From contig JBBDYA010000045.1 in assembly GCA_040902005.1 (NCBI GenBank), forward strand, positions 99,933 through 163,932: 64,000 bases of DNA. The letters are read 5' to 3'. The number at the start of each line of letters is the position of its first letter. Position 1 is the first letter of the stretch. Made by a program: the position numbers. This document shows positions 35,801 through 47,800 of this stretch, one piece after another. The stretch comes from Gemmatimonadaceae bacterium. GTDB taxonomy: Bacteria > Gemmatimonadota > Gemmatimonadetes > Gemmatimonadales > Gemmatimonadaceae.

Positions 35801-38800
35801 GACGTACAACATGCTCTCCGCCTTTCACAAAAGCCTCCGCGGGAGCGATCCGCACGGGGCGCTCTACTGGATGGCTCGGTTTCTCGAGGGCGGCGGCGAT
35901 CCCATGGTGTTGTTCCGTCGCGCTCTCGCGATGGCCGCGGAGGACGTTGGCCTCGCCGATCCGCAGGCGCTGCAGATGGCCGTCGCGGCCCGCAACGCCT
36001 TTCACATGCTGGGTGCCCCGGAAGGGTACCTTCCGCTCGCGCAGATGGTCATCTATCTGGCGACGGCGCCGAAGTCCAACAGTGCGAAAGTTGCCTTGGG
36101 CGAGGCGATGCGGGCCGCGATGGAAACGCCGGCCGAGGGCGTGCCCATGCACATCCGGAACGCGCCGACCAGCCTCATGAAGGAACTGGGGTATCACTCG
36201 GGGTATCAGTACGCGCATGACGCGCCCGAGGCATACATCCCGCAGGAGTATCTTCCCGACCGACTGCGTGGGCGCACGTTCTACACTCCCGGTCCATTCG
36301 GGTTCGAGAAGGAGATCGCGAAGCGGCTCGCGTGGTGGGACGAGGTGAAGCGCCGCAACGACGACGAGAGGAATGACACATGAAGACAGTGGCAGTAATG
36401 GCGTTGGCGCTCGGCGCCGCGGCGTGCTCGGCGCTCGGGCGGCAGGCGTTCCAGAATCCGGTCGTCAACCTCCGCAACGTGGCGGTGCAGGGGCTCGGCC
36501 TGTCTGGTGGCCAACTCGAGGTGCAGCTGAGCGTCTACAATCCGAACAACTATCGACTGGACGCGTCCCGACTGACCTACCGGGTATTCGTGGGTGACAC
36601 GCTCGGGCTGGCCAGTGGTGCGGTGGACACCCGCACGACGGTGCAGGCCGAGGATTCCACGATCGTGGTGATTCCCGTGTCCTTCACCTACGCGGGACTC
36701 AGCGCCGCGGCGCGCCAGATCCTGCTGACTGGCAGTGTGACCTACCGCGTGGCGGGGGACGTGACGGTGGGCTCCGTCGTGGGCAACTTTACGGTGCCCT
36801 ATTCCGCGACGGGCCGATTCAACACGGTGCGGTAGCCGGAGGCAACATCTCGAAGGCACCGATTCAGGTTCAGCAACCGGTGGACCGCGCGCTCCTCGTG
36901 GGCGCGCCGCTCAAACGCGCGCGTGCGCGCGCGGATCTGCGCGAGCACCTCGACGAGCTCGCGCGACTGGTGGACACCGCGGGCGCCGTCATCGTGGGCG
37001 AGCTAACGCAACAGCTCGACCGTCCGCATGCCGCGACGTATCTCGGCGCTGGCAAGATCGATGAATTGCGGCAGATGGTCATCGACACGCAGGCCACCAT
37101 CGTCGTGTTCGACGACGAACTCTCGCCCTCGCAGGCGAAGAACATCGAGGACTCCATCGGGCAGCGGGTCGTCGACCGCGCGGAGTTGATTCTGGACATC
37201 TTCGCCACGCGGGCCCGCTCGGCAGAAGCGAAGGTGCAGGTCGAGTTGGCGCAACTGGAGTACATGCTCCCGCGCCTGACGCGCATGTGGACCCACCTCG
37301 AGAAGTTTCGCGGCGGTATCGGCGTCCGGGGTCCCGGCGAAACACAGCTGGAGACGGACCGCCGGCTGATCAGCCATCGCATCAAGCTTCTGCGTGCGAA
37401 GCTGCGCGAGGTCACAAAAGGGCGCGCCGTGCAGCGGCAGGGACGCCGTGGCGAGTTCAAGGCGTCCCTTGTCGGCTACACGAACGCGGGCAAGTCGTCG
37501 CTGCTGCGCTCGCTCGCGAACGCGCAGGACATCTTCGTGGAAGACCGGCTGTTCGCGACACTGGATCCGCTGACGCGGGAAGTGAAGCTCGACGACCACG
37601 CGAAGGCACTCGTGACCGACACGGTTGGCTTCATTCGCAAGCTCCCCCACCACCTGGTCGCGTCGTTTCGTGCGACGCTGGAGGAGGCGCGTGAGGCAGA
37701 CCTGCTGCTGCACGTGATCGACGCGTCGCACGCCATGTGGGAGGAGCAGCGCGGCGTAGTGGAGGACGTGCTGAAGAGCCTGGAGCTTCACGAGCGTCCG
37801 GCACTCCTGGTCTTCAACAAGGTGGACCTGCTGGACGAGCAGGAGCTCCTGGCGTTGCAGGAGCGCATGGCATCCGACGGGCAGGAGGCGGTCTTCGTGT
37901 CCGCCGTGAGCCCGGACGGCACCCTGCCGCTTCGCCGCGCCCTTCAGGGCGCCATGCGGGTTCGGCGCCCGCTCGCGGAGATCAACCTGTCGCCCGCCGA
38001 CGGGAAGATGCTCGCCGAGATTCATCAGTACGGCGAGGTGCTTGATCAGCGCACCATCGGAGAGCGGCTCGTCCTGCGCGCACGGATCGGCGAGAAGCTC
38101 GCGGGTCGACTGCGCCGGGCTGGCGCCATCGTCGACCGAGAGAATACCGCCGGGTCATGATCGCCGTCGTCACCGGCGGCAGTGGCTTCATCGGCCGGAA
38201 TCTGATCCGGCGCCTGCTCGCGGACGGGCATCGGGTGCGGTGTCTCGTGCGTCCATCCGGGGGCGATCCGCCAGCCGACGTGGCGCGATATCTCGTTGCG
38301 CTGGACGATCCACGCGCGCTCGCGCGATGTCCCGCATTCGAGGGGGCGGACGTCGTCTTTCATCTCGCGGGCGCCACGAGGGCTGTCCGGTTCAGGGACT
38401 TTGCCACCGCCAACGTGGGGCCCACCCGGCAGCTGCTTGGCGCGCTGGCGCATCGGGGCCTCGGGCCACGGTTTGTATTCGTGTCGTCACAGGCGGCAGC
38501 GGGTCCTGCCACCACCGCGGACCGACCCGTGGTCGAGACGGATGAACCGCGTCCCATCGAGCCCTACGGCGCGAGCAAGCTCGAAGCCGAACGCGTGGTG
38601 CAGGCGCACTCGGATCGCGTGCCGGTCACGATTCTCAGGCCGTCAGCGGTGTTCGGCCCGCACGATCGCGATTTTCTCATGCTCTTCCGCATGGCTGTTC
38701 GCGGGATGATCCTGTACCCGGGCGTCGCGACGCACTGGCTGTCCCTCGTTCACGTGGATGACGTGGTGGACGCGCTTCTCGCGGTGGCCGTCCAGGACCG

Positions 38801-44800: not shown

Positions 44801-47800
44801 CCGGGTTCATGCTCTCGGCTCCCGATTTCAATCGCGCCATCAGACGCATCGGGAACGGGCGGCTGTTGCCGTTCGGGTTCGTTCGGCTGTTGCGCGAACG
44901 ATCGCGCGCGCGCACGGGACGCGTTATCGCGTTCGGCATCCGGGAACAGTTCCGCAACCAGAGTGTGCTGCCGGTATTCATGCATGAGGCGGCGAGACGC
45001 GCCATCGCCTACGGGTCTCCCGGCTCGGAGGCGTCCTGGATCCTGGAGGACAACGTGGGCATGCGGCAGGGCATCGAGGCGTTCGGCGGTCGCGTGTATC
45101 GTCGCTGGCGGATCTTCGAGCGCCAGATCGCGCCCCGCCCCGCGTGACGTGAGCGCGCGACGCATCGCGATCGTCAGCGACTGGTTCGCGCCCCGACGCG
45201 GCGGAATCGAAGCGCAGCTGGCGCAGCTCGCGCAGCGCCTGGGCGCGCGCGGACATGCGGTGGACGTGTTCACCTCCACGCCTGGCGCGCGCGAGGGCGA
45301 GGGGTACCGGGTTCGGCCGGCCGATGTCTGGACGCTGCCGGCGCTGCATCTCGCGGCGTCGCCGCGGCTCGTGCAGCGCCTGCGCCGCCAGCTGGACCAG
45401 GGGTACGACGTCGTGCACGCGCACGTGAGCGTGGTGTCGCCACTGGGATACGCTGGGGCGATTGCTGCGCGGTCGCTCGGACTCCCAACGGTCCTGACCT
45501 TTCACTCGGTGCTGCACGCCAAGGCCCACGTGTTGCGGGCCGCGAGCGCCGTGCTCGATCTCCCGGCGAGCGCCATCGTGTGGACGGCTGTCAGCCGGCT
45601 CGTCGCGTTACAGGCGAAAAAGGCGATGGGCGTGCCCGTGCTCGAGTTGCCGAACGGCATCGAGCTGGCCGAGTGGCGCACCCTCCCCGGCGCGAGGACG
45701 CTGGAGACGCCGGTCACGATCGTGTCCGCGATGCGACTTCACCGAAAGAAGAGACCGAGGCAGCTGGTGGCGGCGTTCGCCCGCGCGGCCAAGCATGCGC
45801 GGCGACCGGCTCGTCTGCTCATCGTCGGCGATGGACCGGAACGCTCCGCGCTCGACCACGACATTCGCGCGCTCGGACTGAACGATGGTCCATCCCGCGT
45901 TGAGCTCCACGGCTGGGTGAACCCGAACGGATTGCGGGCCATGTACGGGGGAGCCCACGCGTTCGCGCTGGCGTCCCGGAACGAATCGTTCGGGATCGCG
46001 GCCCTCGAGGCGCGGGCCGCGGGCCTGCCAGTCATCGCGATGCGCCAGTCCGGGAGCAGCGAGTTTCTCGAGGACGGAACGGACGCGCTGCTGTGCGATG
46101 ACGACGCGGACCTGTCACGCGCCCTGACCGAGGTGATTCGGGATGGCGCGCTCCGCGGGTGCCTGGGGCAACGGATTCCCGGCCTCGAGCGGTACGACTG
46201 GAGCGCCGTCCTGAACGGCCACGAGGCCGCCTACCAGCTGGCTACGACGCGCGCAACCGCCGTGGCATGAGTTGGCGAAGCGTGAGCAGCGCGTAGCCGG
46301 TGCCGATGGAGGGCAGCAGGAAGCAGAGATGCTGGACGACCGCCAGCCCCAGCGCGGTTTCCGCAGGTGTGCCCACGAAGCGGTACACCGCGAACACGGT
46401 CGCCTCGTAGATCCCGAGGTTGGCGGGCGCGATCGGGACCAGCGTCGACAGGGCGAGCGCGGCGACGATCAGGACGGCGGTGGAGAGCGAGGGTTCAACT
46501 CCGAACGCTGCCTGCACGGCCAGCACGGCTGCCACCTCTGCGGCCTTCTTGAGGAGCGTCAGGACGGCGACCTGCCAAAGGCGGCGCGGCTCGCGCAGCG
46601 CATCCAGGTGCTGTCCCCACGCCGCGAGCGCGCCGAGGAGGCGGCGAGTGGTCGTGGGCATCGCGAGCAATCGCTCCCGGATCGCACTCCAATGGTGTGC
46701 GAGCGGAACGAGAAGGGCGAGCGACGCGACCAGCACCAGCAGCAGGAGCACGAAACCCTTGCGCAGCCAGATCGGGATGGGCGCGATGGCGACCGCGAGC
46801 GAAAGCACCGACAGCTTCGCGAATGCCACGAGCAGCTGATCCATCGCAAGCACCGAGAGCGCCGCGCCGCGCGAGAGCCCGGCCCGTGCAATCAGCAGCG
46901 CTACCGCGGACGCCTCCCCCGCGAGAAAAGGCACCGAGTTCAACACGCTCGCGGTCACGGCGACTACCTCGAACATCCGCGCGTACAGTATGCGCGCGGT
47001 TCCTGGCACCAGGATCCGCCATTCGAGCGCCCAGAGTGGCAGGATGGCGAAGTTGACCGCCAGGGCAAGGACGAGCCACATGGGCTTCACTCGTTGCAGC
47101 TCGGCTACGGCGCGATCCAGCGGCAGCGTTCGCAGCACCTGGACGAGTGCGAGTGTCAACGCGAGCCACAGAATCGGGAGCAGCCACGCCGTGACGGTCG
47201 ACCGGCGGACGGCGGCGATCGTCATGCGGCCGCCAGTTGGGCACCGAGGCGGTCCATGCGAACAAACGTCGCGCCGCGGCGCTGAAAGAGATCGATGACT
47301 TCGCGCACGGCGCGCAGTGCCGGCTCGCCCGTGCGGAATCGACAGTCGAGACGCAGTCGCTCCCGCGTCAGGTCCACGAACTCCCATGGGTGCACGAACA
47401 GCACGACCGGCGAAGCGAGCGACAGCAGCCAGCGGTCGCGCAGCCAGCGCGGAAGGCGCAGCACAGAGGACGTCATCGATGCGGGGATGCGCGTCAGCGG
47501 GGTGCGCGCGGGCGGGCCGTAGTACTCCGCCTTGTACCTGGCCTGTGACGAGTCGACGAGATATCCCTCCTCCACCAGCAGTGGCAGACAGGCGGTCGGC
47601 AAGCGCAGGTTGGGCGCGCGGAAGGACGTCACCGGCGCTCCGAACGCCCTCAACGCCGCCGTTGCCGCGCGCAGGTCCAGTTGTGCGTCCGCGGGAGGCA
47701 TCCGGTCGAAGCGCTGATGCGTGTGTCCATGACATCCCAGCTCGTGCCCGCGAGCGATCACGTCACGGATACGCGCGGGAAAGCGCTCCGCCACCTGACC

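Follow-up and report, generated by a model that had tools for sequence, protein, structure and literature searches.

In Caulobacter crescentus the dihydroceramide genes have been described as AasR, AcpR, Spt, CerR and bCerS (CC_1165, CC_1163, CC_1162, CC_1164 and CC_1154, respectively), and Spt is reported to be fed by a dedicated acyl carrier protein (ACP) and an acyl-ACP synthetase (PMC11324152, PMC9386255). In another system, PfSgaAB of Pseudomonas fluorescens MYb115, an iterative polyketide synthase (PKS) is paired with an alpha-oxoamine synthase (AOS) that is fed by the PKS carrier, and serine palmitoyltransferase (SPT) activity of the AOS was measured (PMC12134224). Furthermore, A-CP-AOS proteins were among the assembly-line PLP domains catalogued in 2013, where they are entered without an assigned function (PMC3870968).

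We have analysed a window of 64,000 nucleotides from a contig of a Gemmatimonadaceae bacterium. The source organism is uncultured and of soil type. All six genes that the survey's finding had placed at 38157-46270 were recovered at their positions, with the PAP2_3 gene alone on the opposite strand, and the cluster probably reaches further, to about 49587. Compared by the set of activities given in the published descriptions, the locus is like that of Caulobacter in bringing together a means of activating fatty acids, a dedicated carrier, a PLP enzyme for the condensation, an extended SDR and an acyltransferase of the YghO family; in both cases the genes are clustered and LPS genes co-occur (LpxC and LpxB are present in the window's genome). 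It differs from Caulobacter in that three activities, encoded there by separate genes among CC_1162-1165 (PMC11324152, PMC9386255), are indeed carried on one 1104-aa chain, that the activating domain is a fatty acyl-AMP ligase (FAAL) of the PKS/NRPS loading type, that a dedicated Sfp-type phosphopantetheinyl transferase (PPTase) is encoded alongside, and that the PLP domain lies outside the Spt clade. With PfSgaAB the locus shares an AOS that receives its acyl chain from a megasynthase-type carrier domain, a sphingoid base product (predicted for the window) and a cluster SDR, proposed there as the ketoreductase (PMC12134224). In PfSgaAB, however, the PKS builds the chain and the AOS is a separate protein, whereas in the window the AOS is fused to a FAAL that would take up a preformed fatty acid; the PfSgaAB cluster as described in that report also has no bCerS-like gene (PMC12134224).

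We regard the locus as a probable sphingolipid-type (ceramide) biosynthesis cluster in which the long-chain base would be made by one self-loading protein. The FAAL domain would adenylate a free fatty acid and load it onto its own carrier domain, primed beforehand by the neighbouring Sfp-type transferase, and the C-terminal PLP domain would condense the acyl-S-carrier with an amino acid, for which L-serine is the likeliest choice, giving a 3-keto long-chain base. The YghO/bCerS-family acyltransferase would N-acylate this base and the CerR-like SDR would reduce the 3-keto group, giving dihydroceramide. An Aur1-like PAP2_3 protein may then take a phospho-headgroup from a glycerophospholipid and place it on the 1-OH of ceramide, and a triad of GT4, deacetylase and flippase-like proteins may add and unmask an amino sugar on ceramide or another lipid and move it across the inner membrane. 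All substrates and products, as well as the order of N-acylation and 3-keto reduction, are what we infer from the genes and domains observed, the catalytic residues, the conservation of neighbourhoods and the matching folds.

The fusion (39178..42492, plus strand, 1104 aa from the ATG at 39178), identified from Pfam, PDB relatives and trees, carries AMP-binding (residues 34-431), PP-binding (615-680) and Aminotran_1_2 (753-1095) domains, as first reported; these correspond to a FAAL region at about 39259-40938, an ACP at 41020-41217 and a PLP alpha-oxoamine synthase at 41434-42462. The ACP attachment serine, in GLDSV, and the PLP lysine, Lys954 in SKS, are retained by all 12 aligned fusions, and for the N-terminal part every top-ranking solved relative is a fatty acyl-AMP ligase (7r7f at 514 bits, 3kxw, FadD23, FadD32 and 3pbk). 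As had been claimed, fusions of about 1100 aa make up the list of the 120 best database relatives, all three Pfam domains being present in 119, about 100 of them at 67-81% identity; those with names come from Gemmatimonadaceae or Gemmatimonadota MAGs and are called AONS or aminotransferase. The three-domain order is also that of the 2013 A-CP-AOS proteins and of fusions in two Planctomycetota genomes, where the AOS domains are 54-55% and the FAAL parts 49-51% identical to those of the window; both genomes carry bCerS-like genes as well, a co-presence per genome, as the short planctomycete contigs examined did not show bCerS or CerR next to the fusion. At locus L008 a 1053-aa AMP-binding/PP-binding/AOS fusion, whose AOS domain falls within the Spt-like clade, lies immediately 3' of bCerS.

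The PPTase gene (42508..43182, plus strand, 224 aa; Pfam ACPS and AASDHPPT_N), whose best NCBIfam match was HetI at 102 bits, under the cut-off, presumably encodes the enzyme that activates the carrier domain of the fusion. A homologue was found at the same place in six loci (L003, L004, L007, L011, L025 and L039), every one of the fused type; loci with a standalone AOS had none there. The fusion carries a FAAL-ACP loading didomain, an arrangement typical of PKS/NRPS, and for ORF residues 66-727 the best NCBIfam match is an NRPS/PKS model. Fusion, PPTase and SDR might thus form a small FAAL-ACP-AOS secondary-metabolite module that makes a diffusible amino-ketone or amino-alcohol, with the GNAT as a general N-acyltransferase and no bulk membrane lipid as product. 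The assembly-line setting of the A-CP-AOS proteins (PMC3870968) and the listing of the same architecture for Pseudomonadota and Bacillota clusters fit such a module, but the cluster has housekeeping genes on either side, hflX overlapping the first of its own genes, and the partners are membrane-lipid enzymes (PAP2_3, flippase-like and Wzi-like). Of 71 genomes sampled from one family of the phylum, 70 have bCerS-like genes, which likewise fits a core envelope trait, and we hold a secondary-metabolite role to be quite improbable.

For a ceramide cluster the identity of the amino acid depends on the PLP domain. As reported before, its best PDB matches are the solved serine palmitoyltransferases 3a2b and 8guh (E 2.5e-68, 234 bits), which lead by 28 bits the runners-up, BioF/KBL chains at 205-206 bits and KBL at 200 bits. 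The label "serine-palmitoyltransferase-type" did not hold up, however: in trees the domain forms a separate lineage outside the bCerS-linked Spt-like clade, and bioF is its best NCBIfam model (343 bits, ahead of an Spt model at 319.5 bits, cut-off 640), with no Spt, KBL or BioF cut-off reached; even a genuine KBL from this genome outscores the fusion on the Spt models. A tree in which the fused and Spt-like sequences were held together was 7.67 log-likelihood units worse and was not rejected at 0.05 (AU p 0.0586), and a further unlabelled AOS, L100, groups with the fused clade with weak support (84/73). Its identity is 30-39% with Spt-like proteins, 30-36% with KBL and 34-40% with BioF. The domain appears from its sequence to be a third AOS lineage, equidistant from Spt-like enzymes, KBL and BioF, and since it stands outside the Spt clade, the use of serine is something that we infer.

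The same route might therefore run on alanine, glycine or another amino acid, yielding, in place of a ceramide proper, a 1-deoxy-ceramide or some other lipid of the N-acyl amino-ketone or N-acyl amino-alcohol kind. The separate lineage would allow this, and bacterial 1-deoxysphingolipids are described as abundant in nature (PMC11334938); in a solved enzyme, serine is reported to be recognised mostly through water and main-chain contacts, so that sequence cannot settle the substrate (PMC10196870). Nonetheless, we consider another amino acid unlikely, given the lead of the solved SPTs among the PDB matches, the place that the fusion takes in the cluster and the acceptor that its partners would need. 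The sphingolipid reading itself gains from the AOS complement of the genome, which has only two AOS genes in 3.64 Mb. One is the fusion, 1.5 kb from the bCerS-like gene, which makes their proximity more than chance; the other, a KBL adjoining tdh, passes the NCBIfam KBL cut-off, so that no second candidate is left. No AOS more than 40% identical to an Spt-like query was found in four genomes with a fused-lineage AOS. Clusters of related Gemmatimonadaceae are built on the same chassis of a divergent PAP2_3, bCerS-like, GT4, flippase-like, deacetylase and Wzi-like genes, and hold either the fusion with a PPTase upstream or a standalone Spt-like AOS straight after bCerS. Since the two alternate in otherwise the same clusters, the fusion would fill the Spt role. 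Serine would also fit the two cluster enzymes, the Aur1-like transferase and the GT4, that would require a lipid 1-OH as acceptor.

The first of these, a PAP2_3 membrane protein (43155..44000, minus strand, with a start possible as far upstream as 44141), had been called a PAP2 phosphatase. Its Pfam PAP2_3 score is 62 bits against a cut-off of 27, and all 28 sequences compared have the motifs FPS[SG]H, HYxxD and GPR without change. A PDB sequence search found nothing; with the AF2 model (pLDDT 94.3), the only Foldseek matches at E<=0.001 were the inositol-phosphorylceramide (IPC) synthases 9vj4_A and 9ivc_A, and VIA aligned it over its whole length with 9ivc_A (Z 19.0, 263 residues) and 9vj4_A (Z 18.7, 259 residues). 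The protein therefore looks more like an Aur1-type ceramide phosphotransferase, and is probably, from its modelled fold, a ceramide phospho-headgroup transferase. An Aur1 homologue in Bacteroides makes phosphoinositol dihydroceramide (PMC9246714). The candidate shares with the IPC synthases Aur1 and BT_1522 the PAP2_3 family, the whole-length fold and the conserved His/His/Asp motifs, and it lies inside a predicted ceramide cluster, but sequence identity is only 14-16%. The window's genome has a MIPS gene adjoining a CDP-alcohol phosphatidyltransferase gene; MIPS does not point to inositol, because 142 of the phylum's 151 genomes carry it, irrespective of bCerS.

The bCerS-like gene (43999..45147, plus strand, 382 aa), whose start overlaps that of PAP2_3 in CATG, encodes a GNAT-like acyltransferase that is a candidate ceramide synthase. 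Its homology to E. coli YghO was re-measured and stood (34.2% identity over 99% of the query, E 5e-53); the Pfam GNAT match is weak, at 21.4 bits, and no NCBIfam family was matched. With 1292 cluster representatives at E<=1e-30, the YghO/bCerS family is a large one, and it also occurs in non-sphingolipid settings, for example adjoining nucleotidyltransferase genes on Roseomonas plasmids. The SDR (38157..39167, plus strand, 336 aa; Pfam Epimerase family, 131.8 bits), a CerR-like candidate 3-keto reductase of the extended type, overlaps the hflX stop with its start (ATGA) and reached no NCBIfam cut-off, HpnA being best at 129 bits against 368; at 33 of the 80 loci, homologues with 34-46% identity adjoin AOS and bCerS-like genes. 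Among the 48 bCerS-like loci flanked by 5 kb or more of sequence on either side, an AOS was present within 6 kb in 33, a CerR-like SDR in 25 and a PAP2_3 gene within 3 kb in 27, and in the Acidobacteriota each of the three was found at 18 of 18 loci. Because the AOS, bCerS-like GNAT and CerR-like SDR recur as neighbours in several phyla, a ceramide-type pathway remains the best reading; the survey's pathway claim stands to that extent, and gives way on the PLP clade, the role of PAP2 and glycosylation. It is mainly this context that supports ceramide as the most likely, predicted product. The trait is not special to the window's genome, as 95 of the 151 genomes sampled from the phylum carry a bCerS-like gene.

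Glycosylation of the ceramide, earlier called probable, is weakened by the company the glycosyltransferase keeps. In P. aeruginosa gpgSDF, comprising a GT4, a deacetylase and a UPF0104 flippase, is described as modifying phosphatidylglycerol (PMC12713373), and hexSDF of C. difficile is another aminoglycolipid triad (PMC10128005). The window has the same make-up of GT4, deacetylase and UPF0104/MprF-type flippase: a GT4 (45149..46270, plus strand, likely from a GTG at 45149; Pfam Glycos_transf_1 and Glyco_transf_4), a UPF0104 / LPG_synthase_TM flippase-like membrane protein (46242..47225, minus strand; Pfam 101.4 bits, NCBIfam TIGR00374 48.9 against a cut-off of 43.2) and a polysaccharide-deacetylase-family protein (47222..47974, minus strand; Polysacc_deac_1, 60.7 bits), the last two beyond the range first reported. 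The acceptor could thus equally be phosphatidylglycerol, and the triad an independent glucosaminyl-phosphatidylglycerol system that neighbours the cluster by chance, leaving the ceramide unglycosylated. This touches only the glycosphingolipid sub-claim and is compatible with a ceramide pathway; we take it as a serious contender, though we lean slightly against it. In favour of an independent system, the two minus-strand genes are convergent with the GT4, and the triad was found in none of 18 Acidobacteriota clusters. Against it, the GT4 reached no NCBIfam cut-off and scored only 40.8 bits on the GlcNAc-PG synthase model (GlcN_PG_synth, cut-off 480). The triad also differs from gpgSDF in that its genes do not form one operon and that its deacetylase belongs to PF01522, GpgD being given as COG3233 (PMC12713373). 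Furthermore, in Gemmatimonadota the triad stays by the ceramide genes despite shifting position (downstream in L003 and L004, as in the window; upstream in G082, L007, L025 and L039; behind the standalone AOS in L016 and L026), although these genomes are related and shared ancestry may partly explain this. Linkage to ceramide genes was seen for the flippase-like gene in 12 of 80 loci, all Gemmatimonadota, for the deacetylase in 9 and for a Wzi-like outer-membrane protein gene in 6; in the window the latter (47953..49587, plus strand, uncertain start; Caps_assemb_Wzi, 116.8 bits) is tentatively counted as a member of the cluster.

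The survey's finding took 38157..46270 for a complete Caulobacter-type ceramide (glycosphingolipid) gene cluster, and the coordinates, lengths and Pfam ranges of its six genes were all reproduced. The cluster opens with an extended SDR of the Pfam Epimerase family (38157-39167, plus strand), whose start overlaps the stop of hflX (36880-38160, plus strand). Next come a 1104-aa fusion (39178-42492, plus strand; AMP-binding 34-431 with its C-terminal subdomain, PP-binding 615-680 and Aminotran_1_2 753-1095), an Sfp-type phosphopantetheinyl transferase or PPTase (42508-43182, plus strand), a PAP2_3 membrane protein (43155-44000, minus strand), a 382-aa candidate ceramide synthase of the YghO family, here called bCerS-like, which gave only a weak GNAT match (43999-45147, plus strand), and a GT4 glycosyltransferase (~45149-46270, plus strand). 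Beyond this range lie a UPF0104/LPG_synthase_TM flippase-like protein (46242-47225, minus strand), a polysaccharide-deacetylase-family protein (47222-47974, minus strand) and a Wzi-like outer-membrane protein (~47953-49587, plus strand). The GC content of the window is 63-71%. In the closest loci, from records titled Gemmatimonadaceae MAGs, the proteins were 71-83% identical and the gene order was the same. PAP2_3 and bCerS-like are divergent genes whose probable start codons share a single CATG (43998-44001); with no intergenic space between the starts, each promoter must therefore sit inside the other gene.

Bacterial sphingolipids affect the stability of the outer membrane, sensitivity to antibiotics and host signalling. 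By the account of PMC9386255 and PMC11324152, dihydroceramide formation in Caulobacter needs five genes (CC_1162-1165 and CC_1154), and its Spt takes the acyl chain from a dedicated ACP, which a synthetase reserved for this task has loaded. The fused cluster fits the same logic of a carrier-bound acyl chain fed to Spt, and it also fits that of P. fluorescens, for which a PKS-fed alpha-oxoamine synthase (AOS) with measured SPT activity is described in PMC12134224. The bCerS-like protein shares 34.2% identity with YghO, and its family counts 1292 cluster representatives at E<=1e-30. A 10-sequence alignment was used as query, and the best 80 loci were fetched, of which 48 are flanked by 5 kb or more on either side. 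In 33 of these 48 well-flanked loci an AOS gene lay within 6 kb of the bCerS-like gene, in 25 a CerR-like SDR did so, and in 27 a PAP2_3 gene lay within 3 kb. The 25 SDRs are homologues of the window's own, a candidate CerR-type reductase for which the libraries searched contain no curated model. All 18 Acidobacteriota loci counted had the order SDR, PAP2_3, bCerS, AOS. No locus from Alphaproteobacteria was among the best 80. The cluster is real and coherent. Its most likely role is the making of ceramide or phosphoceramide, with a starter enzyme that is fused, loads itself and comes from a separate AOS lineage; amino-acid substrate, head groups and sugar acceptor are inferred. Elsewhere, the Streptomyces sp. 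plasmid NZ_CP108712.1 (match H2) carries a YghO/bCerS-family gene beside one for a class I/II PLP enzyme, and on Roseomonas plasmids (matches H1 and H3-H15) such a gene adjoins nucleotidyltransferase genes instead. The plasmid matches included YghO and none from Caulobacter.

In the fusion, the first part is a fatty acyl-AMP ligase (FAAL) by its relatives, as its 15 best PDB sequences were FAALs or FAAL domains (254-514 bits) and not acyl-CoA ligases; in NCBIfam the FAAL models outranked the CoA-ligase models, yet fell below the cut-off (437.7 vs 775). A carrier domain lies downstream of it. Both the attachment serine of the carrier (GLDSV) and the PLP lysine (SKS) were kept in 12 of 12 aligned fusions. 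That the same fusion recurs in more than 100 database proteins under uninformative names was borne out, with 119 of the 120 best database relatives holding the same three domains and the named ones being called AONS or aminotransferase. The FAAL-ACP-AOS architecture was known before: a 2013 catalogue, reported in PMC3870968, already includes A-CP-AOS proteins, and for Atlas clusters with these three domains the commonest recorded phylum was Pseudomonadota or Bacillota.

Aligned to the solved enzymes 3a2b and 8guh, the PLP domain retains HNS, DEAHS and SKS, which hold the catalytic lysine, the stacking histidine and the Asp/His pair. Solved serine palmitoyltransferases do rank first for it, as had been claimed (3a2b/8guh at 234 bits over the full length, BioF/KBL chains at 205-206 and KBL at 200). 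The label "serine-palmitoyltransferase-type" did not hold up, since in the careful tree the domain falls outside the Spt-like clade, and in NCBIfam bioF ranked first. The NCBIfam ranking was bioF, then an Spt model, then KBL, with every cut-off missed: bioF TIGR00858 gave 343.3 (cut-off 426.45), KBL NF005394 295.5 (460), and the Spt equivalogs NF047600, NF047599 and NF047603 gave 319.5, 298.3 and 204.5 (640, 500 and 670). The other AOS of the window's genome is a genuine KBL adjoining tdh (502 bits vs 460), and it outscores the fusion on the Spt models; the equivalogs were therefore set aside as uninformative for a functional call on this domain. The NCBIfam scan covered 23 of the 93 extracted AOS sequences. 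Tested standalone AOS proteins adjoining bCerS-like genes had the Spt model first, at 450-570 bits, which is still below 640 but about 70-130 bits above their own BioF and KBL scores.

A quick AOS tree was made of 56 of the 93 sequences after thinning of near-duplicates, and a careful one of 54 rows, with the very long rows L094 and L095 left out; its references were set by gene context and by NCBIfam labels and cut-offs, characterised Spt being absent from it. Three groups come out of the careful tree: an Spt-like clade of bCerS-adjacent enzymes (34 rows, support 100/99), KBL with BioF (9 rows, 100/99), and, outside the Spt-like clade, all 10 rows of the fused lineage (100/100). One unlabelled AOS pairs weakly with the fused lineage (84/73). 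An AU test of grouping the fused with the Spt-like rows did not quite reject this (p 0.0586), and identities of the PLP domain were 30-39% to Spt-like, 30-36% to KBL and 34-40% to BioF proteins. Active-site residues were dropped as a test for serine because, according to PMC10196870, serine is held in the solved enzyme mostly via waters and main-chain atoms. By the tests run, the PLP domain is best described as a distinct AOS lineage and not as Spt.

Two forms of the cluster share one chassis in Gemmatimonadota. The fused form (the window, L003, L004, L007, L011, L020, L025, L037 and L039) has the SDR, the fusion and usually the PPTase upstream and is without a standalone AOS. In the standalone form (L006, L010, L014, L016, L026, L028 and L036) an Spt-like AOS stands directly after bCerS, without FAAL or PPTase. 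No AOS more than 40% identical to an Spt-like query was found in the window's genome or in the three other genomes with a fused-lineage AOS. A Gemmatimonadaceae MAG locus (L008, 1996-5157) holds a 1053-aa AMP-binding/PP-binding/AOS fusion directly after bCerS, and the position of its AOS domain, a long branch within the canonical Spt-like clade, suggests a second, independent fusion event. On a single origin of the fused-type clusters the bCerS tree gave no answer, its backbone being unresolved.

Across 151 sampled genomes of the phylum, including two unpublished ones (G062 and G102) on which alone no claim is made, a bCerS-like gene was found in 95, the window's genome counted, and in most of these it lies directly beside an AOS gene. 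It occurs in 70 of 71 genomes of one family, in 5 of 31 of the window's family plus the window itself, and in none of four of one genus. An AOS more than 50% identical to that of the window was found in 3 of the 150 other genomes, fused in G082, and standalone or cut by a contig end in G010 and G007. In G010, from another family of the phylum, the fused-lineage AOS (54% identical) is alone in a 459-aa frame (L138, 9319-12544); no FAAL was found within 9 kb upstream, and a divergent bCerS-like gene (32% identical) follows 1 kb downstream. In Planctomycetota, all three genomes with bCerS-like loci hold an AOS 52-55% identical to the window's, and in G156 and G157 the AOS is fused to FAAL (49-51% identical). 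The AOS domains of the third genome, G158, are 52-53% identical (L153, 10212-11351, and L154, 8977-10116) and form part of open reading frames some 2600 aa long, which had no similarity to the FAAL query and are possibly PKS-AOS megasynthases.

The gene between the PPTase and bCerS had been called a PAP2 phosphatase, a name that its predicted structure does not favour, as the model matches the whole-length membrane fold of IPC synthase, beyond the PAP2 core. Its PAP2_3 domain scored 62 bits against a gathering score of 27; we take this Pfam family to be that of Aur1/Ipt1-type ceramide phosphotransferases. In 28 sequences the motifs FPS[SG]H and HYxxD and the residues H208, H247 and D251, a C2/C3-type His, His, Asp set, were invariant. 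At E<=1 a PDB sequence search gave no match for this protein, nor one for the bCerS-like protein. The model, built from 28 homologues of ceramide-type clusters, had a pLDDT of 94.3, and Foldseek at E<=0.001 gave two matches only, 9vj4_A (inositol phosphorylceramide synthase with ceramide) and 9ivc_A (Aur1). In VIA-align these scored Z 18.7 (259/281 residues) and Z 19.0 (263/281), followed at a modest Z margin by LpxE (Z 16.5, over a 162-residue PAP2 core only); a human SMS-related protein had Z 11.0. A Bacteroides phosphoinositol-dihydroceramide synthase is an Aur1 homologue, by the account of PMC9246714. Because of these fold matches, the invariant motifs and the Bacteroides homologue, we read the gene as a probable ceramide phospho-headgroup transferase.

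A myo-inositol-1-phosphate synthase (MIPS) gene lies directly after a CDP-alcohol phosphatidyltransferase gene about 47 kb upstream of the window on the same contig (locus L143, 6846-8941, G000:C45), so that the organism is probably able to make inositol phospholipids. MIPS as a pointer to inositol-ceramide was rejected, since 142 of the 151 sampled genomes carry it with or without bCerS. A few kb from the MIPS gene, a 643-aa ORF (L143, 968-2899, minus strand) combines a PIG-L (GlcNAc-PI de-N-acetylase) domain with one of the glucosamine-6-phosphate isomerase/6-phosphogluconolactonase type.

The GT4, deacetylase and UPF0104 flippase are present together by Pfam, and this triad has the make-up of gpgSDF, whose product is glucosaminyl-phosphatidylglycerol, and of hexSDF, both as described in PMC12713373. 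The window's GT4 scored 40.8 bits against a cut-off of 480 on the GlcNAc-PG synthase model NF053787, over its last 100 residues only. In Gemmatimonadota the triad lies near the ceramide genes in variable position, and it was absent from the 18 Acidobacteriota clusters. Its sugar acceptor could be ceramide, phosphoceramide or phosphatidylglycerol, and with several acceptors conceivable a glycosphingolipid is a possible product of the cluster.

Surveys predict bacterial sphingolipids in dozens of phyla with Spt as the marker; in the account of PMC11334938, a Black Sea survey, Spt-like proteins were predicted in 38 phyla, so that 40 phyla are now known where there had been 9, and a wider "clade B" was defined by co-location with CerR and bCerS. 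The string "Gemmatimonad" is absent from its main text and preprint. Among the papers listed on the phylum together with sphingolipids (20 of 87) or ceramides (15 of 31), none deals with the phylum's lipids, judged by title and start of abstract. Should the fusion prove to be a sphingoid-base synthase, whole lineages would escape marker searches confined to the Spt clade or to a protein size of about 400 aa, since databases name the fusions AONS. Going from a fatty acid to the long-chain base with one protein would also be handy for making sphingoid bases in E. coli. The Aur1-like transferase and the aminoglycolipid triad suggest a testable head-group chemistry, and a soil phylum of which few members have been cultured would thereby join those known for phosphosphingolipids and cationic lipids.

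These elements can be joined into one reading, which taken as a whole we regard as improbable. The FAAL-ACP-AOS proteins of Gemmatimonadota and Planctomycetota would represent a third sphingoid-base synthase lineage, whose recruitment was independent of canonical Spt, and would use free fatty acids without acyl-CoA or a separate ACP. In the window's cluster the Aur1-like enzyme would make phosphoglycerol- or phosphoinositol-ceramide, to which the gpgSDF-like triad would add GlcNAc before deacetylating and flipping the lipid, and the outer envelope would thus gain a cationic phosphosphingolipid with an amino sugar, which belongs to no lipid class described so far. In the same reading no desaturase would be needed for a 4,5-unsaturated, sphingosine-type base, which would come from the four-domain relative in G082 with its embedded acyl-CoA dehydrogenase. 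This relative is a 1647-aa protein (L139, 5606-10549, G082:C9) with a complete acyl-CoA dehydrogenase (N-terminal, middle and C-terminal domains) between FAAL and carrier. Before the condensation step this domain could introduce a C2-C3 double bond into the bound acyl chain, from which the 4,5-unsaturated base would follow. The same arrangement is seen at L020.
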